A stretch of 64,000 bases of DNA from Alphaproteobacteria bacterium (GTDB lineage Bacteria > Pseudomonadota > Alphaproteobacteria > CAAHEQ01 > UBA3637), in contig JAZUQR010000026.1 of the NCBI GenBank assembly GCA_045605805.1, positions 1 to 64,000 on the forward strand, written 5' to 3'. How positions within the stretch are numbered: the stretch's first letter is position 1; each line of letters begins with the position of its first letter. Below are positions 39,416 to 56,837 of the stretch, one piece after another. A program made the translations under genes and the position numbers. The notes under the pieces were generated by a model. It worked only from the letters and a program-made list of their open reading frames with translations, had not been told where the DNA came from and made no database searches.

Positions 39416-39500
39416 AAGTGTGACATCAAGGAAAAGGTAAAAATAGGAAAATAATCCTTTGCTTTTTCTTCAAAATGTGCTATACTTCGTTTCGGTTAGG

Positions 39501-39669
39501 GTGACCAGTCAGATTTCAAAAGTGACCAGCCCCCGATTTTTGAAAATAGTATAAGTATTTGATATTACTGTATTTTTATGCGGCCAGTGACGAGACCGAT
39601 TTTTTCTGTTTCGCTAAAAAAATGGCGCGGCTTGTGTCCCCGAATATGAATTATCACCAGGAAGGATCC
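39501..39669. repeat. Phage-like cis element copy 1: GTGACCAG repeats plus conserved 66-bp block
   Basis: 39601-39666 matches 57343-57408 at 58/66 nt; GTGACCAG at 39501 and 39522. Confidence 0.8.
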
Positions 39670-39733
39670 GGTGGCATATTTCCCCCCTAAAAAGGATTGG
39701 CTCTCTATACCCAAACGGCAGTTATGGCCATGT

Positions 39734-40066
39734 TCATATCTGTTGGATTTCAATCCCCAGCACGCCATATTTTTGTTGAGAATCAGGTGTATAAAATTCT
39801 TGTAAAACCGTAATCAATTCTTCTTTGGATGTAAAACCTGCCTGTTCCGGTGTGATAATTTGGCATAGTTTATCAAAACTTTCGGCCCTGTGCAGGTTTA
39901 TGACCCGAGCAACAAAGGAATCATTTGTATCAGATAAATTAGAAAACACAATCTTATCCCCTATTTTTATTTGTTGCCTTTTTTCGTCAAACAACCTAAG
40001 CTCAACAACTTTTTTACCTGATTTTAACAGATTGTAATACTTTGTTTGGACTTTCATATGATGCAT
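39734..40066 (-). CDS. ASCH domain protein
   Basis: SGKKVVELRLFDEKR..IKIGD.I.F; Y.P....KYGVLGI. Confidence 0.88.
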   Translation of the reverse strand: MHHMKVQTKYYNLLKSGKKVVELRLFDEKRQQIKIGDKIVFSNLSDTNDSFVARVINLHRAESFDKLCQIITPEQAGFTSKEELITVLQEFYTPDSQQKYGVLGIEIQQI

Positions 40067-40663: not shown

Positions 40664-40691
40664 ATATTTTTCATCGCCTCATTTCAGGCAC

Positions 40692-40733
40692 GAAAAAAGC
40701 CCGTTTCAAACGGGCTGAATCTTAAATTGGTGG
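40692..40733. repeat. att-like 42-bp direct repeat, distal copy
   Basis: GAAAAAAGCCCGTTTCAAACGGGCTGAATCTTAAATTGGTGG is identical to 60001-60042. Confidence 0.92.
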
Positions 40734-40913
40734 TGTTACTTGATTTTTGAACGAAAAGGATGCATTTGTCCTTTGCTTTTGGGGCATTTTGCAAATGACT
40801 TGTATGCAAAAATAGTGTTGCTTATCGTCAAAAATGCACCTTTTCAAAATATAAGTTGATAAATCTGTAAATAAGAGCATGTATGGTGATCTCCTCAATT
40901 GAAAGGAGAATAC

Positions 40914-41026: not shown

Positions 41027-41467
41027 CTACTTTTCGGTTTTTTTATAGAGAATAAAGTGAGGTAATTTATCCATATCTATATAATTAAACATTTTATAAT
41101 TAGCTCGTCTGGCTTCAGGAGATAAGGTGTACTTTCTTAAATGATCCTTAGGGACGAAAGGATAGAACCAAATCTCATGATGTGAAACACCTTTTTCTTT
41201 CCATTTAAAATTGAGAATTAACAACGGAGGTAAAATCCCAGCTTTCAAAACTTTTTCCATAATGTCCCAACCGGCTCCACGAACAACGGATGAAGGTTTA
41301 TGGTTAGCACTTTTAATTTGGGCGCGAAAATTACAGCCAGTACATTGAATATCACACAGCGGATAATTGTTTGGTAAAAGCATTAACTTTTTACCGCCAT
41401 TAGGACAACAGACCAAATCTACAACTTCTTGTTCCCCAAGCTTTCCATTTTCCTGGTTAATTGACAT
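41027..41467 (-). CDS. DpnI/Dam-replacing-protein-like endonuclease domain
   Basis: CPN.G..L......P..D..C..C...QIKS......GAGW..M matches the DpnI catalytic-domain pattern. Confidence 0.7.
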   Translation of the reverse strand: MSINQENGKLGEQEVVDLVCCPNGGKKLMLLPNNYPLCDIQCTGCNFRAQIKSANHKPSSVVRGAGWDIMEKVLKAGILPPLLILNFKWKEKGVSHHEIWFYPFVPKDHLRKYTLSPEARRANYKMFNYIDMDKLPHFILYKKTEK

Positions 41468-41608
41468 TTCTACCTCCATATCTGTTGTTATATACATAAT
41501 AACAGCTGAAAGTTTTAGAATTTACAATATTATTCAAAAATTTTTCTATTTCACTGGACTTCTTCGTTTTTCCAAGCATTCATTGTAATGTAACGAAAGG
41601 AGTTTATT

Positions 41609-41923
41609 ATGAATACAGTTAAAGTTTATTTGGTGCGAAAACCTTTGGATTTTGAAGAAGTAAAAAACTTATGCAAAAAGTATGCGCATAAGGCCGAAGA
41701 GATCTTAATTGAAGAAACTGTCAACCTACCACCAACTTGGTATGAGGAGTTTTGCCAACGCCCATTGGATAACTACATTTTCTTATCCGGTAAAGGCGGT
41801 TATGATGATTTAGGCCACCGCAAAGTAGTTGCTATAAAATGCCTAGGCAAGCCAACGCTCTAGGTTGATCCTTCCGGCTCAAGCTATTGCCGATATATGG
41901 GAGTAGAAAATGAAAAATTATAA
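41609..41923 (+). pseudogene. DUF6329-like phage small protein with an in-frame TAG at 41861
   Basis: Paralog of 56838-57146; frame continues VDPSGSSYCRYMG after the stop. Confidence 0.8.
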
Positions 41924-42146
41924 TGACATTCCTCCAAATTACAAAATCAGCATGCCGATGGTTTATAACCACGCAATTAGAGTACTTGATAGGCTGGATA
42001 GACGACTGAGCAGACTTAACACCCCAGCGCTACCGATTAAATACAAATACGAAATCAATCGTCTAGAACATAAACTGGAACAAATGGTCGCTAAATACAA
42101 AGCCATTGAAAAGGAGTTGGAATATGTCCGAACCAAAATATCCTGA
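41910..42146 (+). CDS. Hypothetical small coiled-coil protein
   Basis: GGAG RBS; overlaps both neighbours. Confidence 0.55.
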   Translation: MKNYNDIPPNYKISMPMVYNHAIRVLDRLDRRLSRLNTPALPIKYKYEINRLEHKLEQMVAKYKAIEKELEYVRTKIS

Positions 42147-42327
42147 GATAACTGTGCACCTGGCAGGTGAAAATGGGAATGCTTTTTATATTTTAGGCAA
42201 ATGTCGTTCGGCGATGAGGCGTGCTAACATCTCCAAAGAAGAACAAGATGAATTTTACCGCCAAGCCACCGCCAGCGACTATAATCACTTATTCATCACC
42301 TGTATGGAATGGTTTAATGTAGAATAG
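42124..42327 (+). CDS. Phage/ICE small protein with GxxGNAF motif
   Basis: PKYPEITV.L.GENGNAF.ILG; paralog of 56630-56827. Confidence 0.8.
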   Translation: MSEPKYPEITVHLAGENGNAFYILGKCRSAMRRANISKEEQDEFYRQATASDYNHLFITCMEWFNVE

Positions 42328-42392: not shown

Positions 42393-43316
42393 ATGCAACC
42401 CAAATTTTTACATTCTTTTGTGACGCGTTCTCATAAAGGCGTTTATGGCATTATTCGGAAAAATAATCAGATTTTACTCATCCGTAAAGCACGTGGTCCC
42501 TATACAGGGCTTTATGATTTGCCCGGTGGAAGTCCGGAAGCTGATGAAACACCTGAACAAACAGTGGCTCGTGAAATCAAAGAAGAAACAAATTGTGATT
42601 TAATTTCTTGCACCAACCAACGTGAAAAAACAATTTTCTTTTCCAAATTTACCAAAGAAAGTGGAGAAGAAGGCTGTATGCAACACACGGGGATTTTGTT
42701 TGATGTTAAGGTGGCGGGTGAACCCACAACCCAAGGGGATGGATTAGATTCCAATGGAGCTGTTTGGGTAGATATCAATACTTTATCCAGTCAAAATGCA
42801 ACACCTTTTGTTTTAATGGGCTGTGGTAAGGAAGTTATCAATTTAGCCAATGAAGAGGATTACCCTGTGGATGTCGCTGTGCGTGGGGAACCTATCCCCG
42901 AAGGAAGGTGTCCCATGATTGCAGGTCTCTTTTTGTTCAACTCTAAAGGCAATATTATTTTGCAGAAAGTGGCTTTATCAAAGAAAACAGATCCGGGGAA
43001 ATGGAGTTATTCTGCTGCTGGGCATGTGGATGCTGGTGAAACTTATGAACAGGCTGCCTTACGTGAATTAAGCGAAGAAATGGGAATTAAGGCCTCCGGC
43101 ATAACCTTTGTTGGAAAAGGCCATATATTAAAGAACGGCAATCCTCGTGCTTTTCATCATGTATTCAAGGTGATTTCTGATGATAAGATTACTTTTGAAC
43201 CGACCGAGGTAGCCGAAGTTAAAGAATGGACTATTCCGGAATTAAAAGAGCAAATAGGGACTCACCCCGAACAATTCAAAGATATTTTTGCCCAAATTTT
43301 TATGGAGGTCTTTTAA
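42393..43316 (+). CDS. Double Nudix-domain protein (second domain IDI-like)
   Basis: GGSPEADET...REIKEE and AGHVDAGET...RELSEEMG; AGGAGG RBS. Confidence 0.88.
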   Translation: MQPKFLHSFVTRSHKGVYGIIRKNNQILLIRKARGPYTGLYDLPGGSPEADETPEQTVAREIKEETNCDLISCTNQREKTIFFSKFTKESGEEGCMQHTGILFDVKVAGEPTTQGDGLDSNGAVWVDINTLSSQNATPFVLMGCGKEVINLANEEDYPVDVAVRGEPIPEGRCPMIAGLFLFNSKGNIILQKVALSKKTDPGKWSYSAAGHVDAGETYEQAALRELSEEMGIKASGITFVGKGHILKNGNPRAFHHVFKVISDDKITFEPTEVAEVKEWTIPELKEQIGTHPEQFKDIFAQIFMEVF

Positions 43317-43329
43317 TCAAGGAGGAAAC

Positions 43330-43764
43330 ATGTCAGGACCAGAAAGATTTAAAGTACCCGTTGGGATTTTTATAATGCTACGTCAAGACGATAAAGTTTT
43401 GTTGCAGCTGAGGCAAAATTGCTCGTTCAGTGGATATTGGGGATTCGTTGGTGGCCATTTGGATGGAAATGAACAGATCATCTCTGCCGCTATTCGTGAA
43501 GCAAAAGAGGAAGTCGGGGTGGATATTTTACCGGACGATTTGACCTTAAAGACCATTTGCCACAGTAATAAAGGCGAAGAGTACCTGCAATTTTATTTTG
43601 AATGTCGCAAGTGGTTAGGTGAAATTGAAAATAAGGAGCCCCACAAATGCGAACGCTTGGAATGGCATGAATGGAATAAGCTCCCTGAGCATACTTGTCC
43701 CTATTTGAAGGAAGCAGTAAGCAAAATCAATTCAGGAATTTCTTTTTACGAGGATACTTTTTAA
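43330..43764 (+). CDS. Nudix hydrolase
   Basis: GGHLDGNE....AIREAKEEVG; N.EP.KC. Confidence 0.9.
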   Translation: MSGPERFKVPVGIFIMLRQDDKVLLQLRQNCSFSGYWGFVGGHLDGNEQIISAAIREAKEEVGVDILPDDLTLKTICHSNKGEEYLQFYFECRKWLGEIENKEPHKCERLEWHEWNKLPEHTCPYLKEAVSKINSGISFYEDTF

Positions 43765-44354
43765 TGCTGAATAAACTTATTTACTTAACGACAAATCCTC
43801 ATAAAGTTCAAGAAGCCAATGAATTTCTTATTAAGAAATATGGGTTTAATTTGGAAATCATGAAACCTTCTTTTGAAGTGCTGGAGATTCAAGCAAAAAC
43901 TTGTGGCGAGGTTGCGAAATTTAGCGCTAAGTATGGGGCTGAAAAACTGGGAGTTCCGGTTTTGAAATCCGATTCAGGACTTTATATCGAAGCATTGGGC
44001 GGTTTGCCAGGACCTTATAATGCCTATTTTGACAAGCAAATAGGAACAGAAAAGTTTTTGGATATGATGAAAGATATCCCAAATAGGCATGCTAAATTGG
44101 AACATTGTTTTGCTTATTGTGAGCCAGGACAAGAACCCATCTTGTTTACAGGGGGAAGTACGGGGCGTATTTCTTATGAAGCCAAAGGAGAGAAAGGGCG
44201 TTGGCATGACAAGTTTTATATCCCTGATGGGGAAGAAAAAACACTCAGCGAATTACGCGCCATCAACCATGAATATGAGGCACAATTTTGGGGACATGCC
44301 TTGGATGACTTTGCAAAATGGTACAAAGAAAAATTAGAAAAGGATAAAATTTAG
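43764..44354 (+). CDS. HAM1/ITPase-family non-canonical NTP pyrophosphatase (divergent)
   Basis: TTN.HK..E, EIQA, DSGLYIEALGGLPGPY. Confidence 0.88.
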   Translation: MLNKLIYLTTNPHKVQEANEFLIKKYGFNLEIMKPSFEVLEIQAKTCGEVAKFSAKYGAEKLGVPVLKSDSGLYIEALGGLPGPYNAYFDKQIGTEKFLDMMKDIPNRHAKLEHCFAYCEPGQEPILFTGGSTGRISYEAKGEKGRWHDKFYIPDGEEKTLSELRAINHEYEAQFWGHALDDFAKWYKEKLEKDKI

Positions 44355-44368
44355 TGAAAGGATAACAA

Positions 44369-44950
44369 ATGCAATTACCAGAACAAATTGAATCAGAACG
44401 GATTATTTTAAAGCACCCTATGAAACCGACCTTTAAATTGGCTGAGGAGCTTTACGCGATTGTGGATAAATCCAGAAATACTTTAAGCGAATGGCTCCCT
44501 TGGGTGGATAAAACGAACTCTGTAGAGGATGAATTTACTGGATATCTGGTGAGTCTGAATCAAAAACATTGGGATGAAGGAAATGGTTTCGGTTATCTTA
44601 TTTATCAAAAGGAAACAAATCAGATTTTAGGCGTTGTGGATTTATGCCATGTTGAGGAAAAACATCAATCCGCCGAAATCGGGTATTGGCTCTCTGATGA
44701 CGCAACAGGTCATGGGTATATGCAAGAGGCTGTGCGTGCGTTGGAAAGCGAGGCCTTTCAAAATGGACTTAACCGGATTATCATCAGAAATGATACTTTG
44801 AATATACGCTCTGCCCATGTGGCTGAACGCTGTGGTTATATTTTGGAAGGTGTCATGCGTCAAGATTGTTGGGATGATTATCATCAGCATTTACGTAATA
44901 CCAATATCTGGAGCAAACTCAAATCCGAATGGGAGAAAGAACAAAAATGA
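44369..44950 (+). CDS. RimL/RimJ-like GNAT acetyltransferase
   Basis: WLPW, AEIGYWL....GHGYM, N.RS..VAERCG..LEG. Confidence 0.9.
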   Translation: MQLPEQIESERIILKHPMKPTFKLAEELYAIVDKSRNTLSEWLPWVDKTNSVEDEFTGYLVSLNQKHWDEGNGFGYLIYQKETNQILGVVDLCHVEEKHQSAEIGYWLSDDATGHGYMQEAVRALESEAFQNGLNRIIIRNDTLNIRSAHVAERCGYILEGVMRQDCWDDYHQHLRNTNIWSKLKSEWEKEQK

Positions 44951-46158
44951 TTTCACTCAAATCAGCCCCTAGATGGTTATCTATTGCTTATGCCTTAACA
45001 TCGGCATTGTTTTGCCTGCCGACATTAATGCTTTTTTATGGGTTTAAAGGTGTTGGTATGGGGGATTTTTTCTTGATTCAAGGGATATCAAATCTCACTG
45101 TATTTTTTATGGAAGTTCCAACCGGCTATATCGGTGATTTGTTTTCCAGAAAACACACTTTAATTATCGGGGTATTGTTTTGGATCTTGGGGCATGTTAT
45201 TTGGATTTTGGGTTCAGGATTTTTCATTATTTTACTGGGGGAATTGTTATTTGCATTAGCGATTGCTTTCATTTCCGGCACGGCGGAAGCATATTTATAC
45301 GATTTATTGAAAAAACGACATAAAGAAAGTTTATTCCATAAAAAATATGCTAAAATGAAAATGTTGGATGGAATTGCTTTGATGGTGGCTACGCTGACCG
45401 GTGCTTTTATCTATCAATTTTTGGGGCCAACCATTCCGTTATACTTAACAATTTTCTGTTTAATGTTAAGTGTTGTTATTTTATGGCAATTACCGGATGT
45501 TCCCGAATCCAGACGTATTGTTGACAAAGATAAAAGCAAATGGCAGGATATTTTGGATATTTCCAAATATGCCGTTAAACATCCTGAAATAAAATGGCTG
45601 ATGCTTTTACCGGCGGTGTATGGGACATTAACGCTTATTTTGATGTGGGGATTACAATCCGTTATGGTATTTCATCAATTACCTGTATTTGTTTTCAGTT
45701 TGATTTTAGGGATAAACGCATTGATGAGAACTTTTTGGTCGGGCGTTTCCGGTCGGATATTGGAAAAAATAAACCTTTCCGGAACCATAAAATTGCAAAG
45801 TTTAATTATTATCATTGCCTCTTTGGGGGCATGTATATCGGCCTATGTTCCGTTATGGGGTGTTTATATATGTTTGGGCTTGATGATTATCGGATCAGCC
45901 TCCAGTTCTTTATCCAGTATCACAACATCTGTTTTGGTCAATCATAGGATTCAATCCAATGAACGGGCGACAATTTTATCGGTTAAATCAATGCTGGCAA
46001 AGGCTTTTCATGGGGTGGGACTTATCTGCTTGAAACCCTTGTTTGACGGAATAGGTGTCGGACCAACTTTTATGGTATCTGCCCTGCTTTTAATCCCTAT
46101 TCTGATTTGTGCAAGACACCTGTATAAGATGAAGTTAAGGATAATGAAAGGGGACTGA
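44947..46158 (+). CDS. MFS transporter
   Basis: EVPTGYIGDLFSRK; SGTAEAYLYD; RATILS; about 12 TM. Confidence 0.9.
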   Translation: MISLKSAPRWLSIAYALTSALFCLPTLMLFYGFKGVGMGDFFLIQGISNLTVFFMEVPTGYIGDLFSRKHTLIIGVLFWILGHVIWILGSGFFIILLGELLFALAIAFISGTAEAYLYDLLKKRHKESLFHKKYAKMKMLDGIALMVATLTGAFIYQFLGPTIPLYLTIFCLMLSVVILWQLPDVPESRRIVDKDKSKWQDILDISKYAVKHPEIKWLMLLPAVYGTLTLILMWGLQSVMVFHQLPVFVFSLILGINALMRTFWSGVSGRILEKINLSGTIKLQSLIIIIASLGACISAYVPLWGVYICLGLMIIGSASSSLSSITTSVLVNHRIQSNERATILSVKSMLAKAFHGVGLICLKPLFDGIGVGPTFMVSALLLIPILICARHLYKMKLRIMKGD

Positions 46159-46159
46159 T

Positions 46160-47053
46160 ATGCTGATACTGAACATCAATGGGCCAATGAATTCTGGGAA
46201 ATCTACGGTTTCTAAGATTTTGGTGAATATGCTCCCTAACGCCACTTTTATTGAAGTGGATGAATTAATGAGTGATGAGGAACAAGAAAAACTGGGGCTA
46301 TCCCTGCAACAAGGGTGGCGGGAACGTCATAAACGATTAAATCAGAAATTAAGGGCTCTTAAAAAATCGCATGAGTATGAAACTGTGATTTTTGCTTATC
46401 CGATTGCTGACAATACTTATCAGGATTGGAAAATGCTGGAGGATAACCACACAAAGTTTTTGAACATTACCCTTGCGCCCAGTTTGGAAGAATGTTTGAA
46501 AAATCGTGGCACACGAGAACTCACCGATTGGGAAAGAAATCGCATTCGTGAAATGTATGAAGAGGGATATCAAAACCGCCCATACGCCGACTTTATCATC
46601 AATAATGACCATCAAACACCCAAAGAAACTGCTGAGATTATTAAAGGATTTATTGAACATGCTCTCTCCCCAAAACAACAATGGTTACATTTGGTGGAAA
46701 AACGTTGGCCCGCCCTTTTGAACGGAGAAAAAACTTCCACTTTCCGTTTCAATGAAGGTTTCATCCATAAGGGCTTCTTGGTTTATAAAGACTGCCCAAA
46801 CGAACAGTTGGCCGAGGTTGTTTATGTGACACATGTGTATTATGTGCCTTTGCGCCAAGCCAATGAAATAGACGGATATGATGAGCATACACCGGATATG
46901 GAAACAGCCTTAAAACAAATGCGTGTTCATTATCCAGATATTACTTTGGATACGCCCATTTTATTTGCTCAGCACTTAGGAGTTCCTGAAACCAAACAGA
47001 AATATCCAGAAGAAGTTAAAGAAATATTGGAGAAAATGAATGTCAAAAACTAA
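46160..47053 (+). CDS. P-loop nucleotide-kinase-like domain fused to an ASCH-like domain
   Basis: NGPMNSGKST Walker A; C-terminal GEKTSTFR...Y PDIT. Confidence 0.75.
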   Translation: MLILNINGPMNSGKSTVSKILVNMLPNATFIEVDELMSDEEQEKLGLSLQQGWRERHKRLNQKLRALKKSHEYETVIFAYPIADNTYQDWKMLEDNHTKFLNITLAPSLEECLKNRGTRELTDWERNRIREMYEEGYQNRPYADFIINNDHQTPKETAEIIKGFIEHALSPKQQWLHLVEKRWPALLNGEKTSTFRFNEGFIHKGFLVYKDCPNEQLAEVVYVTHVYYVPLRQANEIDGYDEHTPDMETALKQMRVHYPDITLDTPILFAQHLGVPETKQKYPEEVKEILEKMNVKN

Positions 47054-47447
47054 ATTATCAGTATGTGGTGTCATTGTACATCAGAGCAAATTTCTAATAG
47101 TCAAACGTTCTGAAACAGATGACTTTTTGCCAAATTGTTGGGAATTCCCTGGTGGTGGTGTAGAAGATGGTGAAACAATATCCGAAGCCTTGAAACGAGA
47201 AATAAAAGAAGAAATAGGTTGGGATATATCAAATGAATATCCAAAACTCATCGGTATTTCTGAAGAGTTTATGAATGAAGAAAAAACAGAAAGATATTTA
47301 CAATTAAATTATAAGATTGTTATGGACACAGAACCCAACATGACACTCAGTTCCGAACATGTCGCTTTTGATTGGGCGGACACGACCGATTCCAGATTGG
47401 ACGATTTTCTAAAAGAGATTATTAGGCAACTGAATACAACAATCTAA
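47040..47447 (+). CDS. Nudix hydrolase
   Basis: WEFPGGGVEDGET...LKREIKEEIG; LSSEH..FDW. Confidence 0.9.
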   Translation: MSKTKLSVCGVIVHQSKFLIVKRSETDDFLPNCWEFPGGGVEDGETISEALKREIKEEIGWDISNEYPKLIGISEEFMNEEKTERYLQLNYKIVMDTEPNMTLSSEHVAFDWADTTDSRLDDFLKEIIRQLNTTI

Positions 47448-47829
47448 ACTCTTCGCATTCTAACATTGTGTCAGGGGTAATGTCTTTCCAATATGCCTTG
47501 TGAATTTTGCGCCAAGTAGCAAGGGTTTTATCTCCTTCGCCTTCTTTACGAGCAAAATCGGCATCTACATTATTAAAAGGAACAACAGAGACTTTGGTAT
47601 CCTCAATAATTGCTTGAGCATTACCAGTAGAATCTAGGATAATACTGATATCTCCTGCTTGATTGGTATTGCCACCTCGATAAATGCAACTAGTGGCCGT
47701 TTTCTCGCCACTTATGACCAATTGCAACAACTCATCTGGTTTGTCGCCAAAAGTAAAGATGTCATAAGATTTGCCTTTATATGATGGGAACTTTTCAACA
47801 AACTCTTTCCATAATTGTTCGGGAGTCAT
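47422..47829 (-). CDS. ASCH domain protein
   Basis: GEKTATS; EGEGDKTL..WR..H. Confidence 0.9.
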   Translation of the reverse strand: MTPEQLWKEFVEKFPSYKGKSYDIFTFGDKPDELLQLVISGEKTATSCIYRGGNTNQAGDISIILDSTGNAQAIIEDTKVSVVPFNNVDADFARKEGEGDKTLATWRKIHKAYWKDITPDTMLECEEFRLLYSVA

Positions 47830-48083
47830 TTGTTTCGCGCTCCTTTTACCCCAAAGACAGCTTTGAAGTTATACCTGTTCTTGTGAATAAGTTCAACCCC
47901 ATGGGCTTTGGATATAACCAGAACATATTTGCCTATCCACAGACGAAAGTAATAACTTTTAATGGCTAATTTAATATTTTCTTTTGTGCGATATTCAGTA
48001 CCATCAGCCCGCTCCACTTCAACACTTCGGCCGAAGCCAAAGCGATTGTTATCCAAATCAAATCCGTATTCAATGTAAATCAT
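47826..48083 (-). CDS. Small hypothetical protein (DUF3977-like)
   Basis: YIEYG...DGTEY...YFRLWIGK; coupled to both neighbours. Confidence 0.6.
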   Translation of the reverse strand: MIYIEYGFDLDNNRFGFGRSVEVERADGTEYRTKENIKLAIKSYYFRLWIGKYVLVISKAHGVELIHKNRYNFKAVFGVKGARNK

Positions 48084-48540
48084 TTTTCTCCAAATAATCT
48101 AAAAACGCTTGGCAACCTTCATAAATATCCCAATAGGTTTCATCAAAGTTGCCAGTGTACCAAGGGTCTTTAACTGGTCGAGGATTTTGGGTGAAGTCCA
48201 ACAGACGATGCACTTTATGGTCTTTATCCTCGCCAACGATATCCAAAATATCCCGCACATTGTTATCGTCCATCGCCAAAATATAGTCAAATTTATCATA
48301 GTCGGACTTGCGAATTTGACGCGAGTAGTGTTGGGTGAAAGGGACTTTCATCTGCCGAAGCATATCCGCCGCTCGGTAATCCAGCGCCTCATGCACCATT
48401 TCGTTATACCCCTCTGTCGCGGCAGAGACAATTTCAAACTTGTCCGCTACACCTTTCTCAGCGACCATTTGCTTCATCACAAATTCCGCCATTGGCGACC
48501 GACAAATATTTCCAAGACATACGAATAGAACTTTAATCAT
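48070..48540 (-). CDS. Low-molecular-weight protein-tyrosine phosphatase
   Basis: FVCLGNICRSPMAE; DPWY. Confidence 0.93.
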   Translation of the reverse strand: MIKVLFVCLGNICRSPMAEFVMKQMVAEKGVADKFEIVSAATEGYNEMVHEALDYRAADMLRQMKVPFTQHYSRQIRKSDYDKFDYILAMDDNNVRDILDIVGEDKDHKVHRLLDFTQNPRPVKDPWYTGNFDETYWDIYEGCQAFLDYLEKNDLH

Positions 48541-51500
48541 TAAGCAACCCTCACATTGTCTGTCCAAAGTTCACATTGAGTCATAACCGTTTCAACGGCA
48601 TCCTCTACACCTTCTGGGGGATACTTATGCTTTTTCAATAACTTTTTAATAAGCATACGCATCTTTGCACGAGCATTCTCACGCCTTTGCCAGTCAATTG
48701 TTTTATTTTTACGCAGTGTTTCTGTTAGTTCTTTTGTAATGGCAACTAATTCGTCATTTTCATAAAAATCCTTAACTGCTTGAGGCTTTGTTAATGCATC
48801 ATAAAAGGCAACTTCTTCTGGTGTTAATCCTAAATCTGCCCCTTCCTTTTGGGCCTCCGAAATTTGTTTTGCCAGGCTGAGTAACTCTTCTATTACCTGC
48901 TCGTTGGTAAGCATACCATTTAGGTAGCGGTTCATAATTGCCTGAATTATTTCACTAAACTTTTCAGAACGCACAACGTTTGTTTTACGGTAAATAGAAA
49001 TTTGTTCTGCAATTAATTTTTTCAAAAGTTCAAGGGCTAAATTCTTTTGTTTCATTTTTGAAATTTCTTCCAAAAACTTCGGATCAAACAAAGAAAATTC
49101 TTTCTTTACATCAGAAAATAAATTAATAACGCCATCGCTTTTTATACTTTGTTTCAGCAACTCATTAATACGTTCATTCATTTCCTTCAAAGAAATCTTT
49201 TTGCCTTCTCCTGCATTAGTTAAGCGTAAGGTCAAAACACGAACGGCTTCCATAAAAGCGGCTTCTATGCGTTTTTCTTCCTTAACAATAGAAGAACACA
49301 AAGATAAGGATTGATGTAGCATCAAGGCATGCTTCAGGAATTGTTCTTTTTTCTTATCTGTTCCAATAATAAAGTTTACTGCCCCACTAATAAGCTCAGC
49401 ACGCTTTAAATTACTACCCGTCATAAATTGTTGATAATCAAATCCATGCAATAAATCACGACAAACACTTAATTTTTCTTCAAATTCTTTAAGTGCTGTT
49501 TCAGCGATATTCATATTTCCATAGTTCTTTTTATCACGAACTGTGTAATCGTTCATCGCTTGTTTCAGCGCATTTGCAATTCCGACATAATCTACAACAA
49601 GTCCACCTTCTTTATCCTCAAATACACGATTAACGCGAGCTATTGCCTGCATTAAATTATGTCCCATCATTGGTTTATAAACATACATCGTTGCCAAAGA
49701 AGGTACATCAAATCCGGTCAACCACATATCCACCACAATGGCAATTTTTAGAGGATCTTTGTTATCCTTAAATTTACGGGCCAACGCTTCTTTATGAGAT
49801 TTATTTCCAATGATTTGACGCCAATCTTCTGGGTCATCATTACTAGAAGTCATCACAACCCCCACTTTTTCTTTCCAATTGGGACGTAATTTTAAGATTT
49901 CTTCATAAATTTTCAAAGCAATAGGACGTGAATAAGCAACAATCATCGCCTTTCCAGTAAGCAAGTTTTCCCGATAATTTTCATAGTGGTCTATAATATC
50001 GTTTACCAAGGAATGAATAGTGTTATCATTCCCCAGAATTGCTTCCATTTGCCCAAGTTTCTTTTTACTTGCTTCAATGACTTCAGGATCTGCATTTTGG
50101 GCCATTAAATCATATTCATCATCAATTTTCTTGAGTGTTTCTTTATCCAGATTCAACTTAACCACTCGACTTTCATAGTAAACGGGGCGAGTTGCTCCAT
50201 CTTCCACAGCCTGTGTCATATCATAGATATCAATATAATTTCCAAACACTTCTTGCGTATTTCTGTCTTTTTTGGAAATAGGTGTCCCCGTAAACCCGAT
50301 AAATGTTGCATTTGGAAGACTATTGCGGATAACACGAGCAGTCCCTGTTTTAATTTTCCCGTCTTTGGTTATTTTTTCCGCCAAACCATATTGCCCCCGA
50401 TGAGCTTCATCTGCCATCACAATAATATTCCGGCGAGTGGACAATGGCTCTTCGGATTCTTCAAACTTCTGCATCGTTGTAAAGAAAATCCCATTGGCCT
50501 TGATACCATTTAATAACTTTTTCAAATGTTCCCGACTAGTTGCTTGAACGGGTTCTTGTCTTAAAAAGTCTTTACATTTGGCAAATTGTCCATAGAGTTG
50601 ATCGTCCAAATCATTGCGGTCTGTTAGTACCACAATTGTCGGACTGTTTAAAGCACTTTGTAGCAGGTGGGCATAAAACACCATAGATAAAGATTTACCA
50701 GAACCTTGTGTATGCCAAAACACACCACCTTTACCATCTGTTTCTGTTGCTTTTTGAGTTGAAGTAATGGCTTTTTTCACCGCGAAGTATTGGTGATATC
50801 CGGCCAAGATCTTTTTGCTTCCTTTATTTTCATTGGAAAAGCAAATAAAGTTCTTCAAAATATCCAAGAGTCTCTCTTTTGGAAAGATGCCTTTAAAAAA
50901 AGTATCAAACTGTGCGTGTTGGGTATTTTCATATTTTCCATCCACAGTTTTCCATTCCATAAAGCGTGTTTCATCAGAAGTAATCGTTCCCGCCTTGGAT
51001 GTCAATAAATCGCTTGTGACGCAAATAGCGTTATAGATAAACATAGAGGGGATTTCATGTTTATAGTTTTGGATTTGGCGATATGCCTCGGAGGCATCTG
51101 TTTCTTCACGGGAAGGAGATTTCAACTCCATCAAAACCAAAGGCAATCCGTTCACAAATAACAAAATATCCGGACGTTTTTCGCTGTTTTCAATAAAGGT
51201 CCATTGGTTAGCTACAATAAAAGAGTTTTTATCAGGTCTATTATAATCAATCAAATAAACAATGGTATCTTTGGGTTCTCCCTTTTCTGTATAGCGAACC
51301 GTAATACCACTTTGCAAATACTCCATAAACACAGCATTCTTTTGTGTTAGTTCTGCGTTCTCAAAGTTCTTTAATTTTGTTAAGGCCTCTTTAATCGCCA
51401 CTTCGGGAAGTTTAGGATTCAAGCGGCACAAAGCATCAATCAACTCATCTTCGTATAAGGGAGAATGAAAATCCCGACTTTCTAAATCAGGCCCATAGAC

Positions 51501-51587
51501 ATACCGATACCCCATCCCCTCAAACAACTCTATTACAGAGTTTTCATAAGCTTCTTCATTTACAGGATTGATAAAAGTATCGGTCAT
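48540..51587 (-). CDS. hsdR: Type I restriction endonuclease subunit R
   Basis: RPD....NGLPL...ELK; HTQGSGKS; DEAH; QAIARVNR. Confidence 0.95.
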   Translation of the reverse strand: MTDTFINPVNEEAYENSVIELFEGMGYRYVYGPDLESRDFHSPLYEDELIDALCRLNPKLPEVAIKEALTKLKNFENAELTQKNAVFMEYLQSGITVRYTEKGEPKDTIVYLIDYNRPDKNSFIVANQWTFIENSEKRPDILLFVNGLPLVLMELKSPSREETDASEAYRQIQNYKHEIPSMFIYNAICVTSDLLTSKAGTITSDETRFMEWKTVDGKYENTQHAQFDTFFKGIFPKERLLDILKNFICFSNENKGSKKILAGYHQYFAVKKAITSTQKATETDGKGGVFWHTQGSGKSLSMVFYAHLLQSALNSPTIVVLTDRNDLDDQLYGQFAKCKDFLRQEPVQATSREHLKKLLNGIKANGIFFTTMQKFEESEEPLSTRRNIIVMADEAHRGQYGLAEKITKDGKIKTGTARVIRNSLPNATFIGFTGTPISKKDRNTQEVFGNYIDIYDMTQAVEDGATRPVYYESRVVKLNLDKETLKKIDDEYDLMAQNADPEVIEASKKKLGQMEAILGNDNTIHSLVNDIIDHYENYRENLLTGKAMIVAYSRPIALKIYEEILKLRPNWKEKVGVVMTSSNDDPEDWRQIIGNKSHKEALARKFKDNKDPLKIAIVVDMWLTGFDVPSLATMYVYKPMMGHNLMQAIARVNRVFEDKEGGLVVDYVGIANALKQAMNDYTVRDKKNYGNMNIAETALKEFEEKLSVCRDLLHGFDYQQFMTGSNLKRAELISGAVNFIIGTDKKKEQFLKHALMLHQSLSLCSSIVKEEKRIEAAFMEAVRVLTLRLTNAGEGKKISLKEMNERINELLKQSIKSDGVINLFSDVKKEFSLFDPKFLEEISKMKQKNLALELLKKLIAEQISIYRKTNVVRSEKFSEIIQAIMNRYLNGMLTNEQVIEELLSLAKQISEAQKEGADLGLTPEEVAFYDALTKPQAVKDFYENDELVAITKELTETLRKNKTIDWQRRENARAKMRMLIKKLLKKHKYPPEGVEDAVETVMTQCELWTDNVRVA

Positions 51588-52438
51588 TTTTTCTCCTTTA
51601 ATCCTTTAAGAAATTCAGCCATTTTGTTTTTCCGTTCTTTATTATCTTTAGCCAAAACGCAGAATAAAAGCAATTGATAAATTTCATCATACCACTTTTC
51701 TAATTCTTCATTGGTCAGATTTGTTACTAGATTATTTTTCTTTTTACCTGCCTTGTTATTATGACGAATATCTAAATTATTAAGCATATTCTTTGCAGTT
51801 TTGAAATAATCAGTGAATCCGTCAATAGGATTATCTAAAATAGGTTCATATTCCTGAGCAATTCGACGTAAAATATCTTTTTTTTCTGCTAATTGTCCCT
51901 TTAATGATGCATGATGGTATTTTAAAATTGCCATTGCTGTATCTGTAGAGGAAATTTCTGCTACAGCTGTTGCAGCAGGATTTTTAGGAATTAAAATAAC
52001 TTTTTCTTCTTCAGTAAATATCTTCTTTTCATGGTGAATATGTTCTAAAAGCAAATCTATATTACTCAAAAGCATAGGATATTCATTATAATACTGAAAA
52101 TTAATATTTTGACGACCAACTCCTCGCTTCTGTATCAATAAATTTATAAGATTAAGATAATACTCTAAAATTGTTACCATTTCATCAGTGGTATCCACAT
52201 GTTCTGAAATGAATATTTTGTGTCTCATTTCATCACAGTTTAAGCAACTTCCTCTTTGCTTCCAATTTACAAAAGCATAACTATCTACCATTTGTTCAAT
52301 AGTTCCCTGTGTTTGTTGAAAATTTAAAGGATTTGTATACACCAACATTGCGGTATTAAATAATTTAACAATTTTTCGAAATTCTTTTTGAAAATCATAC
52401 TTGCTTGCTAAAATTTCAAAGATATTTTTACGAGTCAT
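51584..52438 (-). CDS. Hypothetical protein inserted in the R-M locus (possible AbiJ/HEPN-like)
   Basis: AT-rich; helical C-terminus with LNNLDIRHNN. Confidence 0.6.
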   Translation of the reverse strand: MTRKNIFEILASKYDFQKEFRKIVKLFNTAMLVYTNPLNFQQTQGTIEQMVDSYAFVNWKQRGSCLNCDEMRHKIFISEHVDTTDEMVTILEYYLNLINLLIQKRGVGRQNINFQYYNEYPMLLSNIDLLLEHIHHEKKIFTEEEKVILIPKNPAATAVAEISSTDTAMAILKYHHASLKGQLAEKKDILRRIAQEYEPILDNPIDGFTDYFKTAKNMLNNLDIRHNNKAGKKKNNLVTNLTNEELEKWYDEIYQLLLFCVLAKDNKERKNKMAEFLKGLKEKK

Positions 52439-52914
52439 GGGGCATCCTTTTTATTTTCCAGTGGCTTATTAAAACAATCGATATTCTTTTTTAGTTCTAC
52501 TGTTAAATCGTTGGTTACAGCATATATTTTATAATCTTTTATATTGGCAATATCTTTATTAGTATTATCATCTATTTTGGGAATAAAAACAGTATTATAG
52601 GGAGATATCACAAGGGGACTCCCTAACGCGGTCCAAAAACCACTTTGCGTATTATTATCTTCTACATATATACGGTAAATAACTTCCGTTTTATTTTTAT
52701 GATTAACAATGCAAAAGTTTGTTATATTTGCCTTTTGAGTCTTGTGATCATACATTGCTGTCGGCAAAACAATAGATAAATCGTGCCCCGTTCTTTCTTG
52801 TTTATCATCTTTTGCTATCTTTGCCATGGTCTTGGTAAGGAAAAATATGGCAATTGTCAAAATTAACATTGATGTTGATAAAACTATGTTCCAATCTATA
52901 TAAACCATATTCAA
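52435..52914 (-). CDS. Hypothetical protein with N-terminal TM helix
   Basis: 4-nt overlaps with neighbours; AT-rich. Confidence 0.65.
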   Translation of the reverse strand: MNMVYIDWNIVLSTSMLILTIAIFFLTKTMAKIAKDDKQERTGHDLSIVLPTAMYDHKTQKANITNFCIVNHKNKTEVIYRIYVEDNNTQSGFWTALGSPLVISPYNTVFIPKIDDNTNKDIANIKDYKIYAVTNDLTVELKKNIDCFNKPLENKKDAP

Positions 52915-54122
52915 ACCTCCACATTATCGACATTGATTTTGCCGGACATGAGTTTGGGTAATAAAGTGTCTCGAAGTGCAGACAACTGGATATTTTCTCT
53001 TTGGTTTGCTTTAATTTGTGCAAACATTGGAGAAATCACAGAATGGAAATCTTTCAATTCAGATTCTTCTGGCATAACAAAAGGCATTGATTTAATAATT
53101 TTTGAATTAACGGCAGTTGCAATGGATGACGTGCTCCCCATTGTTTGAAAATTAAAGTTTTTCAAATAATAATACAAATATTCGTTTATTTCTTTTTTAT
53201 CTGTTCCAAAATGAGCAATGGCTTCGTTTGTTGCCATTTCTCCATCTGTAATTGCAATTCTTCCAACAGTCAGTTTAAAGCTCAATAGAACAGTATTATC
53301 TGGTACAATTTTAACATTAAATTTGGAAATTGACTCTGGAACTAAATATTCAGAACTATCAGAAATATACAGCCCACAATTTCCCATATCGGATATAGAT
53401 ATCCATTTAATATCATTAGTGTTTTTTGAAAACCATTCAGGCTCTTTTCGGGGAGGAGTTTTCCCGATTGTAATATTAAAAAATTCTTCAGCTTTTATCG
53501 TTTTTCTGTTTGGATTTATTTTATCTATGAACCAAGATTTAAAGAGGGCTTGGGCTTGGAGTTCGAGGTTTTGATTGATTTTGTTGTTCAGCTCTATCTT
53601 ATCATCCAGAGCCCCCAACACCCCCGCAATCTTCCTCTGCACCTCCACTGGCGGTATATTTACAGGGATGGAATACAAATGTCCAACCTTTATGCTAGGT
53701 TGTACAGAACTTATATTCAATGCTTGTATATAACTTTGTATATTGGGTTGAGATAAACAATAATACATGAATGTAGAGTCAATGTCCTCTTTATACTGCA
53801 TGGCAATGATGTTTTGCGCTATACACCCCTTATCTTGCGGCATTAAAGCAACTTTTCCAATGTTTCCAACAGTTGTTATTAAAACATCTTTTGGGTTGGG
53901 ATGTCCACTTCGAAACCAATTCTGATACGTTTCAATATTAACAAATTTTGATGCAGAAGCCAAATCTGGGTATCTATCTCCAGCTTTTAATAAGTTGCTT
54001 TCAAGTAGAGGAATGATACCTTCCGTATCCAAGGGTGCATTCTTTCCCCGGTTATCAATTGTATTTTTAACCAAATCCCCTAATTTAATCTCTCGCCAAC
54101 CTGACATTATATTATTTGCCAT
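52911..54122 (-). CDS. hsdS: Type I R-M specificity subunit
   Basis: Two TRDs; Q.KIA.VL.ALDDKIELN; LRDTLLPKLMSG. Confidence 0.93.
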   Translation of the reverse strand: MANNIMSGWREIKLGDLVKNTIDNRGKNAPLDTEGIIPLLESNLLKAGDRYPDLASASKFVNIETYQNWFRSGHPNPKDVLITTVGNIGKVALMPQDKGCIAQNIIAMQYKEDIDSTFMYYCLSQPNIQSYIQALNISSVQPSIKVGHLYSIPVNIPPVEVQRKIAGVLGALDDKIELNNKINQNLELQAQALFKSWFIDKINPNRKTIKAEEFFNITIGKTPPRKEPEWFSKNTNDIKWISISDMGNCGLYISDSSEYLVPESISKFNVKIVPDNTVLLSFKLTVGRIAITDGEMATNEAIAHFGTDKKEINEYLYYYLKNFNFQTMGSTSSIATAVNSKIIKSMPFVMPEESELKDFHSVISPMFAQIKANQRENIQLSALRDTLLPKLMSGKINVDNVEV

Positions 54123-54132
54123 CAAATATTCC

Positions 54133-56827: not shown

Positions 56828-56837
56828 GACGATCTCC

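Follow-up and report, generated by a model that had tools for sequence, protein, structure and literature searches.

The seven-gene operon at 42393-47447 of the alphaproteobacterial window analysed here (the whole 64,000-nucleotide stretch of DNA) appears to be mobile cargo, passed on horizontally and probably vectored by phages, whose house-cleaning, salvage and detoxification enzymes would act independently in a host that is auxotrophic for nucleotides. We have moderate confidence in this reading. The stacked enzymes would keep scavenged nucleotides in a clean, usable state. Literature searches gave no account of an operon of this kind.

The seven genes lie on one strand, with neighbors overlapping or at most 14 nt apart, and the ORFs and the sequence itself bear out the layout given in a preliminary description of this DNA (Table 1). 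Three small co-oriented ORFs directly 5' (41609-42327) are probably part of the operon; homology to the same-genus genome G067, at 91% nucleotide identity, begins at about window position 41550, before these ORFs. The convergent ASCH gene that had been counted as an operon companion belongs to a different, opposite-strand unit (hsdM...hsdR-LMWPc-DUF3977-ASCH), of which it is the last gene; the stops and starts of the ASCH, DUF3977 and phosphatase genes overlap.

Table 1. Features of the operon and its surroundings, in window positions
Feature	Position	Strand	Remarks
Left copy of 71-nt direct repeat	40668-40738		83% identical to right copy
Short DpnI-like methyl-directed restriction gene	41027-41497	-	156 aa; Pfam DpnI 58.6 bits; PADLOC mREase_II 3.3e-10
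o84	41609-41863	+	small ORF of operon head module
o78	41910-42146	+	small ORF of operon head module
o73	42106-42327	+	small ORF of head module; phrog_1933 match, 3e-22
Double Nudix	42393-43316	+	307 aa; 13-nt gap to next Nudix
Second Nudix	43330-43764	+	144 aa; stop overlapped by HAM1 ATG (TAATG)
Divergent HAM1/ITPase-family NTP pyrophosphatase	43764-44354	+	196 aa; 14-nt gap to GNAT
MccE/RimL-type GNAT acetyltransferase	44369-44950	+	193 aa; ATGA overlap with MFS
MFS transporter	44947-46158	+	403 aa; 1-nt gap to kinase-ASCH
P-loop small-molecule kinase fused to YqfB-type ASCH	46160-47053	+	14-nt overlap with last Nudix
Last Nudix, operon end	47040-47447	+	135 aa
Convergent ASCH	47422-47829	-	overlaps last Nudix by 26 nt
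DUF3977	47826-48083	-	Pfam; tail gene of R-M unit
Low-molecular-weight phosphatase (LMWPc)	48070-48567	-	Pfam; tail gene of R-M unit
Type I R-M operon (hsdR, hsdS, hsdM) and three extra ORFs	48540-56591	-	Pfam
Inverted second copy of o73/o84 head module	56631-57167	-	upstream of hsdM; inverted repeats
Right copy of 71-nt direct repeat	59977-60047		overlaps 3' end of tRNA-Ala
tRNA-Ala	60037-60112	-	overlapped at 3' end by right repeat copy

The gene set is plastic. Of 27 related loci, collected with the kinase gene as anchor (L001-L027), none has the seven genes exactly as in the window. The whole set does recur, at 88-98% protein identity, in one same-genus species, G067, which has a further HAM1 paralog and a kinase besides (G067:C32, in the order o84-o78-o73-Nud2x-NudB-HAM1-HAM1'-GNAT-MFS-Kin-NudC-kinase). 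Elsewhere, varying colinear subsets that differ in the missing genes are found, in at least eight other species. HAM1 is replaced by HAM1' in G070/L006, and three HAM1 genes stand in tandem without GNAT in G021/L008; other arrays read NudB-HAM1-HAM1'-GNAT-Kin (G023/L012), Nud2x-NudB-Kin (G020/L016), HAM1-MFS-Kin (G040/L018), NudB-HAM1-MFS-Kin (G035) and, lacking the kinase, Nud2x-NudB-HAM1-HAM1'-GNAT-S51 (G072). Close homologs (at least 83% identity) occur in three of the 27 loci for the double Nudix, four for the second Nudix, three for HAM1, six for GNAT and three for MFS, and last Nudix homologs at 67-90% identity occur in five. In 14 loci (L001, L003, L007, L009-L011, L013, L015, L017, L020, L022, L025-L027) none of the six non-kinase genes has a homolog closer than 45%, and the sole homolog in L024 is an opposite-strand GNAT at 64%. 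Sister arrays extend the set with cassettes from the same enzyme classes: further HAM1 paralogs, P-loop kinases, GNATs, His_Phos_1 (a histidine phosphatase), Peptidase_S51 and a hexapeptide acetyltransferase.

Recurrence as a unit thus holds for a single species, and the coherent multi-component system envisaged earlier is not supported, with members missing independently. The converse expectation, of random, nonconserved cassette clusters, describes the variable content largely correctly but not the order of the genes, which never varies. Junctions between genes retain traces of the process: in the window, the 14 nt separating HAM1 from GNAT match the 3' end that HAM1' has in L006 and L012, HAM1 of L018 shares its 3' end with the third paralog (HAM1'') of L008, and metagenome contigs hold further direct joints (Nud2x-MFS and HAM1-MFS). 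These scars point to deletion of genes. A single ancestral mobile operon would account for the pattern, with lineages having lost different members through gene-boundary deletions and recombination between paralogs. Relatives keep the order yet miss different genes, so the locus resembles a pile of separately working enzymes rather than a single machine. On this reading its components are not obligate partners; the genes would be co-transcribed and translationally coupled, yet mutually independent.

Conserved order and translational coupling could alternatively reflect a pathway. The fixed order, the coupling and the presence of a transporter would suit a route that makes a modified nucleoside or nucleotide and exports it, but no scaffold-forming enzyme (glycosyltransferase, radical SAM, ligase or synthase) is found among the seven genes. 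Related species also lose members independently, which a linear pathway would not tolerate, and we regard biosynthesis and export as extremely improbable.

The families of the proteins suggest that most products act on nucleotide-like molecules, as was expected from the outset, and the Pfam matches of the operon genes and the standalone ASCH are all above curated cut-offs. NUDIX scores are 124 bits for the double Nudix (two stretches), 65 (64.8) for the second Nudix and 62 (61.8) for the last. The strict Nudix box pattern is present in three of the four Nudix domains. In the 325-aa ORF of the double Nudix, a near-canonical box lies at residue 64 and a strict one at residue 228; the former, in the N-terminal domain, keeps RE..EE and ends in N where the pattern has G. 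PDB sequence searches place the N-terminal domain of the double Nudix as MutT-like and the C-terminal domain nearest to DR0079, IDI and YfcD. Copies of the last Nudix, at 94% nucleotide identity, are present on contigs C2 and C23 of the assembly. To our knowledge, Nudix substrate specificity cannot be deduced from sequence.

The operon HAM1 (Pfam Ham1p_like, 106 bits) falls below the NCBIfam equivalog cut-offs (126 versus 145; 147 versus 203) and lacks the FGYDP(I)F and SARY motifs that are both present in the core RdgB. The operon gene is an additional copy, making two in the genome: the canonical RdgB is encoded at C27:135651-136202 and scores 182 bits. The host also has a MutT-like gene of its own at 35849-36253, as previously noted (NUDIX_4, 72 bits), and its synteny in two same-genus relatives at 77-80% identity marks it as a core gene. 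The operon is therefore accessory, given that a core MutT and a canonical RdgB are already in the genome. By family membership, the four Nudix domains and the HAM1 paralog would hydrolyze noncanonical or unwanted nucleoside di- and triphosphates and related diphosphates.

The kinase-ASCH fusion joins a kinase (residues 1-170) to an ASCH domain (residues about 175-297), with Pfam scores of 25.4 bits for SKI and 28 bits for ASCH and an AF2 model at pLDDT 93.4 and pTM 0.90. The Walker A motif, GPMNSGKST, is invariant or nearly so in 23 homologs. Foldseek places the kinase domain among shikimate/gluconate kinases, TmrD (2vli) and APS kinase, which are generic matches. In the ASCH octapeptide, GEKTSTFR, residues G189, K191, T194 and R196 are invariant across the 23 homologs, and the motif is of the G-K-T-R type set out in section 22 of preprint 10.64898/2026.02.27.708502, where ASCH enzymes are reported to deacylate ac4C. 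The same activity is reported for YqfB (PMC6972931) and for EOLA1, there in connection with nucleotide salvage (10.64898/2026.08.01.741249). The fusion ASCH may accordingly be predicted, from its family, to strip N4-acyl groups off cytidine-type nucleosides, and the kinase to phosphorylate a small molecule, possibly the nucleoside freed by the ASCH domain.

The fusion at 63% identity or more is found only in this gut alphaproteobacterial clade. Burkholderia and Pantoea plasmid records have the kinase and ASCH halves as separate genes. In sister arrays the kinase domain is alternatively fused to an inorganic pyrophosphatase or to a second kinase, or stands alone. The standalone ASCH scores higher (77 bits) and has relatives in the PDB (1t62, 3s9x), and its octapeptide, GEKTATSC, has C at the R position. 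An Atlas cluster of AAA/ASCH proteins (score 0.85) is noted as a lead only.

The GNAT (Pfam Acetyltransf_3, 79.5 bits) and the MFS protein (MFS_1, 72 bits) may neutralize or transport small toxic compounds, be they amino-bearing, nucleotide-like or of other kinds, as their families would suggest. GNAT, MFS, hexapeptide acetyltransferase and kinase classes are classic antibiotic-modifying activities and are not necessarily nucleotide-related. Among solved structures, the GNAT best matches MccE (3r95, 1.8e-14), which confers immunity to microcin C, and then YdaF and RimL; the activity of MccE and RimL is covered in a review (PMC4964394). In the HMMER alignment, GNAT W45 and S148 align with W52 and S152 of the MccE chain, which would be residues 453 and 553 provided that an inferred numbering offset holds.

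These likenesses suggest a set of resistance or immunity cassettes directed at antibiotics of the nucleoside or aminoacyl-nucleotide type, such as relatives of microcin C or tunicamycin, and at other xenobiotics, in which the GNAT would acetylate, the kinase phosphorylate, Nudix and HAM1 enzymes hydrolyze activated analogues and the MFS protein pump them out. This possible but tentative explanation overlaps the preferred one, with the target lying outside the cell's own pool. The placement of MFS directly 3' of GNAT in the window would suit it, as would the match of the kinase to the tunicamycin-resistance protein TmrD and the CPT-like domain on one neighboring fusion form (P0119). Sister arrays likewise carry hexapeptide (Mac/Vat-class) acetyltransferases, Peptidase_S51 and more small-molecule kinases. 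However, all matches are far under equivalog cut-offs: the GNAT reaches 68.6 against 184 for RimL, and the MFS protein resembles HP1165, TetA(P) and Tet(40) efflux pumps weakly, with Tet scores of about 30-38 against cut-offs of 700-800 (NCBIfam). The position aligned to MccE F466 is not aromatic in the HMMER alignment. GNAT-MFS adjacency is also not conserved, with GNAT joined straight to the kinase in L004, L005, L012 and L021 and MFS directly following HAM1 in L018 and HAM1'' in L008, and several Nudix and HAM1 paralogs would be atypical for resistance loci.

The mobility of the preferred cargo operon is indicated by its distribution. Cassettes are 85-98% identical between genera whose core QueA proteins are 61-71% identical, and the operon-type HAM1 is 94-98% identical across three genera with QueA 64-75% identical to that of the host. 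Cassette identity so far above QueA identity indicates recent horizontal transfer. Flanking genes of the arrays show no synteny between loci. The kinase-ASCH gene is present in 36 of 80 family genomes (26 of 54 high-quality genomes, 9 of 16 genera), with no match in the other 44, and the operon-type HAM1 at 70% identity or more occurs in only 15 of the 80.

In the window, the 71-nt direct repeats delimit a putative island, about 19.3 kb long, in which no structural or replication genes were found and no integrase among the ORFs scanned. The o84-o78-o73 head module is phage-derived, judging from its homologs. In a prophage on contig C8 of the same genome, these lie between a ParB/methyltransferase gene and terS, the o84 and o73 homologs coming immediately before terS, terL and the genes for portal, major head and tape-measure proteins. 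The module is colinear with the operon in G067, and o84 shares 63% protein identity with the copy heading the R-M operon. In L001 and L003, the array comes after DUF1833, NlpC/P60 and GpJ tail genes. The phage link of the array rests on these neighboring genes; no intact phage with the array was found. The only RNA evidence for the array is a set of contigs from RNA libraries, which may contain DNA.

The same surroundings would suit an auxiliary module that serves the phage itself, with temperate phages raising or reshaping the nucleotide supply of a nucleotide-starved host while they replicate, or destroying immune nucleotides (cyclic signals, chain-terminating analogues), and the window copy a phage fossil. 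The head-gene homologs 5' of terS in the resident prophage, the tail-gene neighbors, the near-identical cassettes across genera and the nucleotide-auxotrophic host are consistent with this, as are PHROG matches for the Nudix genes, GNAT, MFS and kinase, though to generic families. Yet all frames are intact although the island has no structural, replication or integrase genes, which suggests selection in the host. HAM1 has no PHROG match, a scan of IMG/VR gave no viral contig with the kinase gene, and an MFS transporter would be unusual phage cargo. A phage-serving role is therefore considered unlikely.

The operon does sit among defense genes, between the DpnI-like gene and the type I R-M operon, as the preliminary description stated. 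An antiphage function that depletes or filters (d)NTPs, such as the modified dNTPs of phages evading the adjacent R-M, would fit this setting and the patchy, mobile distribution of the array. R-M genes adjoin it in L021 and G035 and, by weaker matches, also in L010 and L017, and all three Nudix proteins match the PADLOC candidate PDC-S07 (1e-12 to 4e-21; 3.7e-21 for the last Nudix). R-M genes are common phage cargo, though, so the adjacency may reflect a shared vector only. Many arrays have no defense neighbors: tail genes adjoin L001 and L003, and L004 is next to genes for an ABC ATPase and radical-SAM proteins. Apart from PDC-S07, PADLOC gives only a weak pVip-kinase match (3.4e-5), in line with the earlier remark that no named system was recognizable, and the extra ORFs of the R-M operon have weak NucC (4.5e-4) and PDC-S42 (3.3e-4) matches only. 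Sensor/effector architecture is absent, members are individually dispensable, and constitutive dNTP hydrolysis would be costly for an auxotroph. Defense is thus distinctly unlikely; like export, it was an earlier proposal that gained no specific support.

The nucleotide metabolism of the host gives the preferred cargo operon a plausible context. Its genome (98.85% complete) lacks the AIRS (PurM/PurL) domain and OMP decarboxylase, each present in 14 of 14 control genomes, as well as PRK/Udk (11 of 14) and class I/II ribonucleotide reductase (12 of 14). The AIRS domain is found in none of 80 genomes of the host family, which, on this gene content, is incapable of de novo purine synthesis; missing nucleotide synthesis is also described for other genome-reduced gut Alphaproteobacteria (PMC12306168). 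With neither de novo purines nor OMP decarboxylase, host nucleotides must all come from outside, and this external supply would give a nucleotide-cleaning toolkit selective value. The array is patchy in an equally auxotrophic family, so it is not required for auxotroph life.

Among known systems, the operon is closest to the house-cleaning NTP pyrophosphatases (MutT-type Nudix and RdgB/HAM1 ITPase), a concept that reportedly goes back to Galperin et al. in 2006. It shares their superfamilies, has the catalytic motifs and would be expected to share hydrolysis of noncanonical nucleotides. It differs in stacking five such domains, in mobile form, on top of core MutT and RdgB, in its divergent HAM1, and in relatives with up to three tandem HAM1 paralogs. 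The fusion has the ASCH fold and octapeptide type of the YqfB/EOLA1-type N4-acetylcytidine amidohydrolases, by sequence, and unlike them it carries an N-terminal P-loop kinase. The GNAT shares Acetyltransf_3 with MccE/RimL acetyltransferases, and their Trp and Ser positions appear conserved, but it reaches only about 57 bits and no mcc genes lie near the operon. PDC-S07 is a single Nudix gene, enriched in defense islands and only a candidate, and the match is to a generic Nudix model. Phage moron or cargo hotspots, such as those described for P2/P4 (PMC9122126), likewise hold, at set positions, variable accessory genes and R-M beside conserved phage genes and are exchanged between hosts. The window copy, in contrast, sits in an island without phage structural genes, and the cargo of the array is not defense genes but a long, translationally coupled set of metabolic enzymes.

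Sequence comparisons support viewing the operon as a mobile set of enzymes for house-cleaning, salvage, and detoxification that each stand alone and whose composition is plastic; temperate phages have probably spread it among gut Alphaproteobacteria that are nucleotide auxotrophs. Its seven genes overlap or are spaced by at most 14 nt, and every encoded protein scores above the curated Pfam cut-off. The gene calls, packing, and Pfam scores bear out the view of a real, unusual operon taken in the preliminary description, which was also right about its nucleotide flavor, accessory nature, and restriction–modification (R-M) neighborhood. The convergent standalone ASCH gene is the last of a minus-strand string (hsdM...hsdR-LMWPc-DUF3977-ASCH). 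A promoter and terminator scan gave no excess over shuffles (20 versus 24.2 and 10 versus 7.0) and found no terminator between the two convergent operons, and the sole Rfam match in window positions 35000–61000 was a tRNA-Ala.

Coordinates of the operon, its surroundings, and features of related loci
Feature	Location	Position	Strand	Size	Remark
Seven-gene operon	window	42393-47447	+		
Double Nudix	operon		+	307 aa	two Nudix domains
Second Nudix	operon		+	144 aa	
HAM1-family protein	operon		+	196 aa	ATG overlaps stop of preceding gene
Acetyltransf_3 GNAT	operon		+	193 aa	
MFS transporter	operon		+	403 aa	start overlaps GNAT stop (ATGA)
P-loop kinase–ASCH	operon		+	297 aa	C-terminal ASCH domain
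Last Nudix	operon		+	135 aa	
Standalone ASCH	window	47422-47829	-		26-nt overlap with last Nudix
o84, o78, o73 (small ORFs)	window	41609-42327	+		directly upstream of operon
o84-like fragment	window	2286-2366		27 residues	81% identical to o84; near tRNA cluster at window start
Second direct repeat	window	39420-39740; 57170-57470		78 nt	85% identity
R-M-embedded ORFs	window	51584-52438; 52435-52914; 54133-55017	-		within type I R-M operon
Prophage (L049)	host genome, contig C8	~21.8-39.9 kb			outside window; ParB/DNA-methyltransferase, o84-like, o73-like, terS, terL, portal, major head, tape measure
Tail genes	L001; L003	5569-8780; 5488-8663			DUF1833, NlpC/P60, GpJ/Phage-tail_3; directly upstream of kinase–ASCH array
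Genes downstream of array	L004; L005	5368-9593; 8458-12653			ABC-F-like double ATPase, two radical-SAM proteins (one with SPASM)
Flanks of stand-alone kinase	L024	6442-9684			nitroreductase, SIR2, PPDK_N-domain protein
Alternatively fused kinase	L021	10001-10867			
Tandem HAM1 paralogs	L008; G055 contig C70 (L048)	7050-8785; 10421-11553			two or three copies
Extra last-Nudix copies	host genome, contigs C2; C23	4849-5241; 3947-5360			94% nucleotide identity

A recurrence scan with the kinase–ASCH protein, using one genome per species, returned 30 loci. Three are from Microvirga and have a distant kinase only; the other 27, some of which share one MAG, come from gut or rumen MAGs labeled Alphaproteobacteria (one is labeled Pseudomonadota), at 68–90% identity. 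Among the neighbors at these 27 loci (tblastn, at least 50% coverage), close homologs of the double Nudix were found at 3 (L006, L008, and L016), the second Nudix at 4, the operon-type HAM1 at 3, the GNAT at 6, the MFS at 3, and the last Nudix at 5 (67–90% identity). No homolog more than 45% identical was found for any of the six genes at 14 of the loci (L001, L003, L007, L009–L011, L013, L015, L017, L020, L022, and L025–L027), and L024 has a single 64% GNAT homolog, on the opposite strand, and none of the other five. A DNA search of 80 genomes of the host family recovered the whole unit in a same-genus genome, G067, on a 7,455-bp contig at 88–98% protein identity. Recurrence as a unit holds in part: the whole set is present in G067 and its order is fixed elsewhere, but the exact seven-gene set occurs at none of the 27 loci. 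A fixed multi-component system is not supported, with members differing among loci.

In G067 the unit runs o84-o78-o73, double Nudix, Nudix, HAM1, an extra HAM1 paralog, GNAT, MFS, kinase–ASCH, Nudix, and a further kinase. Colinear subsets are found in G070 (L006), with a 35%-identical paralog in the place of HAM1, and in G021 (L008), with three tandem HAM1 genes and no GNAT. Shorter versions are Nudix-HAM1-HAM1'-GNAT-kinase in G023 (L012; HAM1' is an extra paralog), double Nudix-Nudix-kinase in G020 (L016), HAM1-MFS-kinase in G040 (L018), Nudix-HAM1-MFS-kinase in G035, and, in G072, a kinase-less stretch from double Nudix to GNAT followed by an S51 peptidase. No permutation of gene order was seen among these carriers. 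Metagenome contigs add two direct joints: a contig from a DNA run links the double Nudix to MFS, and one from an RNA library links HAM1 to MFS. Operon parts that the RNA-library contigs do not cover were given no weight.

The junctions themselves indicate how the subsets arose. The HAM1–GNAT spacer in the window matches the 3' end of the HAM1' gene that is absent there, and HAM1 in L018 ends like the third HAM1 paralog of L008; these scars argue for deletion by recombination between paralogous C-termini. Because remnants of neighboring genes are visible at the junctions, a cassette-insertion mechanism for the exact joints was set aside in favor of deletion and paralog recombination. The pattern is read as one ancestral long operon that moved between lineages and lost different genes in each. 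With its constant order, varied subsets, and visible deletion scars, it lends itself to the study of operon plasticity as a natural experiment.

The core protein QueA, encoded in the window and found in 75 of the 80 family genomes, is 72–78% identical within the genus and 61–71% across genera. By contrast, just 15 of the 80 have an operon-type HAM1 at a threshold of 70% identity; it is 97–98% identical in a pair of same-genus species, 97% in a pair from another genus, and 94–95% in a pair from a third. The MFS is 96–98% identical. Kinase–ASCH is more widespread (36/80 genomes, 26/54 of high quality, 9/16 genera; 63–90% identity); the nearest copy (90%) belongs to another genus, where QueA identity is 67%. 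Most of the 27 loci share no related flanking sequence, and comparison of the window with the two closest relatives examined shows synteny ending after the MatE gene (~38.7 kb). Near-identical cassettes set against diverged QueA and unrelated flanks indicate that family members have recently exchanged these genes horizontally.

An integron cassette array was considered and rejected, because gaps of 14 nt or less, or overlaps, cannot accommodate attC sites and the scan of the island ORFs turned up no integrase domain. Small serine recombinases lie near some sister arrays and none is in the window. The 1.21-Mb host genome (98.85% complete) has five such resolvase genes, on contigs C13, C21 (three copies), and C30, at 55–62% identity to those adjoining sister arrays in L003, L006, and L010.

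Phages are the probable carriers. The three small ORFs that precede the operon are found again, in inverted orientation, upstream of hsdM; o73 matches phrog_1933, and a third copy of o84 and o73 sits between the ParB/methyltransferase gene and terS of the prophage on contig C8. At L001 and L003, phage tail genes adjoin the kinase–ASCH array. The two copies of a 71-nt direct repeat (83% identity) flank the island in the window, the right one overlapping the tRNA-Ala 3' end, and neither integrase nor structural genes were found in the island. Judged by neighborhood, phage cargo is the most likely nature of the arrays, and the window most likely holds a decayed phage-derived island. An IMG/VR scan with the kinase–ASCH protein, by a method that finds close relatives only, gave 39 pattern hits, none confirmed, and so no viral contig with the kinase gene. 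Plasmid tblastn returned o73 homologs annotated as hypothetical proteins, and c27, a small ORF before the kinase gene of L001, proved not to be an o73 homolog. The second direct repeat, which has iterated GTGACCAG(C/T)CAG motifs nearby and no Rfam match in its region, brackets together with the 71-nt repeat an ASCH/DUF3850 gene and a GNAT on the left and a nitroreductase and three unknown ORFs on the right.

Sister arrays carry related cargo. Recurrent co-oriented and equally packed neighbors include two further P-loop kinase families (AAA_17/18 and AAA_33/Zeta-like), another GNAT, His_Phos_1 phosphatases, Peptidase_S51, and DUF3850/ASCH, and a hexapeptide (Mac-type) acetyltransferase and an LMW phosphatase recur convergently. 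The common theme is small-molecule chemistry of phosphate, pyrophosphate, and acyl groups, a large part of it plausibly nucleotide-directed. The genes downstream of the L004 and L005 arrays may form a peptide-modification locus. The flanking genes tabulated for L024 accompany a stand-alone kinase at L025 as well.

The Nudix and HAM1 proteins belong clearly to their superfamilies and match no curated equivalog. Three of the four Nudix boxes are strict (GX5EX7REUXEEXGU); in the fourth the catalytic RE..EE is intact and N replaces the terminal G. The three Nudix proteins score 124, 64.8, and 61.8 bits for PF00293 (cut-off 21.1); all three fall short of MutT (8-oxo-dGTPase), at 35–60 bits versus 97.9 (TIGR00586) or 148 (NF008044). 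The operon HAM1 scores 106 bits for PF01725 (cut-off 22.5) and misses the RdgB/HAM1 equivalogs (TIGR00042, 126 versus 145.35; NF011396, 147 versus 203). It and its paralogs retain the N-terminal TxNxxK and D-(S/V)-G motifs and lack the base-binding motifs FGYDPIF and SARY of the genome's own core RdgB, which the operon HAM1 replaces with W-HDKFY and N-AY, so their base specificity is likely to differ. The tandem HAM1 paralogs are only 34–37% identical to one another. The extra last-Nudix copies on C2 and C23 adjoin AAA_33-type kinases in small mini-arrays on short contigs.

The fusion protein has an ASCH domain with the octapeptide GEKTSTFR, in which G189, K191, T194, and R196 are invariant in 23 homologs, as expected of a YqfB-type (G-K-T-R) ASCH amidohydrolase; the standalone ASCH has GEKTATSC, without the Arg. 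The octapeptide Lys and Thr are described as essential in YqfB-type enzymes in section 22 of 10.64898/2026.02.27.708502, and that source, PMC6972931, and 10.64898/2026.08.01.741249 describe deacetylation of ac4C by ASCH proteins, as free nucleoside and in tRNA. The structural model is confident (pLDDT 93.4, pTM 0.90), and in Foldseek the kinase resembles the NMP-kinase-fold group as a whole, with no specific match (shikimate, gluconate, and APS kinases, TmrD, and RapZ at 13–24% identity). It is no shikimate kinase (AroK) equivalog (NF010553, 21 bits versus 204; Pfam SKI marginal, 25.4 versus 22.1), and a PDB sequence search with kinase–ASCH gave nothing significant (best 0.066, P-loop only). 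Plasmid tblastn found only the separate halves, at 32–40% identity. The kinase domain comes in four forms: fused to ASCH, to an inorganic pyrophosphatase, or to a second kinase, and alone. At L020 and L021 and in proteins P0106, P0107, P0118, P0119, and P0037 the same domain (78–90% identical) is joined to inorganic pyrophosphatase, a second Zeta/CPT-like kinase, or PPase plus ASCH (410 aa).

The GNAT has the Acetyltransf_3 fold (79.5 bits) and is no RimL equivalog (68.6 versus 184). Its nearest solved relative is MccE, then YdaF and RimL. PMC4964394 gives the adenine-stacking and catalytic residues of MccE as 453, F466, S553, and E572; with an inferred numbering offset, the Trp and Ser equivalents align and the Phe position does not, and the Glu position lies beyond the aligned stretch.

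No AIRS domain (PurM/PurL) or OMP decarboxylase was found in the host genome (controls detected in 14/14 and 14/14 genomes), nor a PRK/uridine kinase or class I/II ribonucleotide reductase (11/14 and 12/14), and none of the 80 family genomes has an AIRS domain. For the phosphoribosyltransferase fold there were just two weak hits, and for dNK a single one below threshold. An ATP/ADP translocase (PF03219) search was uninformative either way, its control being found in 0 of 14 genomes. The host nonetheless has nine Nudix-domain matches and two HAM1 genes, and four of its genes encode ASCH domains (three from the family search, two in the window and one on C12, plus the fusion by Pfam). PMC12306168 describes missing nucleotide synthesis in another lineage of genome-reduced gut Alphaproteobacteria, of which the host is not claimed to be a member.

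We give a low probability to a fuller account, in which the operon is a phage-borne nucleotide-pool toolkit for hosts unable to make nucleotides, its content tuned by loss and exchange. Kinase–ASCH would then be a bifunctional salvage enzyme converting scavenged N4-acylated cytidine to CMP in one step, and each HAM1 or Nudix paralog would purge a different modified NTP arising from promiscuous salvage of gut-derived modified nucleosides, the pan-operon acting as a diversifying arsenal. Alternatively, the paralogs might destroy nucleotide-based immune signals or chain terminators on behalf of the phage. A defense, phage-serving, or antibiotic-immunity role is possible for some or all members. 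The operon lies beside R-M genes, its Nudix proteins match the candidate PDC-S07 (a generic Nudix model, itself only putative), and there is a weak pVip-kinase match (3.4e-5). PADLOC-DB 2.0 matched the operon to no named multi-gene defense system (6 of 10 scanned proteins had no hit) and no operon protein reached a curated NCBIfam equivalog, in keeping with the earlier view that it is not recognizable as a named system. A biosynthetic pathway is unlikely. The three ORFs embedded in the type I R-M operon have no Pfam family above cut-off and only weak NucC-like (4.5e-4) and PDC-S42 (3.3e-4) similarity; the first two recur in L021 with a 99%-identical hsdR.

The locus cautions defense-island mining that a Nudix, kinase, or GNAT beside R-M genes can be co-traveling phage cargo rather than defense. 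Phages may distribute the enzymes needed for a scavenged nucleotide pool, and the arrays may show how genome-reduced, nucleotide-auxotrophic gut bacteria handle a pool drawn wholly from scavenged and partly modified precursors. The three HAM1 paralog types without the purine-binding motif, the double Nudix, and the kinase–ASCH fusion are candidates for new specificities. No Nudix/HAM1/ASCH/kinase operon was found described in the literature searched; nor were the pan-operon architecture, the kinase–ASCH fusion, and the tandem HAM1 radiation found described there, the enzyme families themselves being known.
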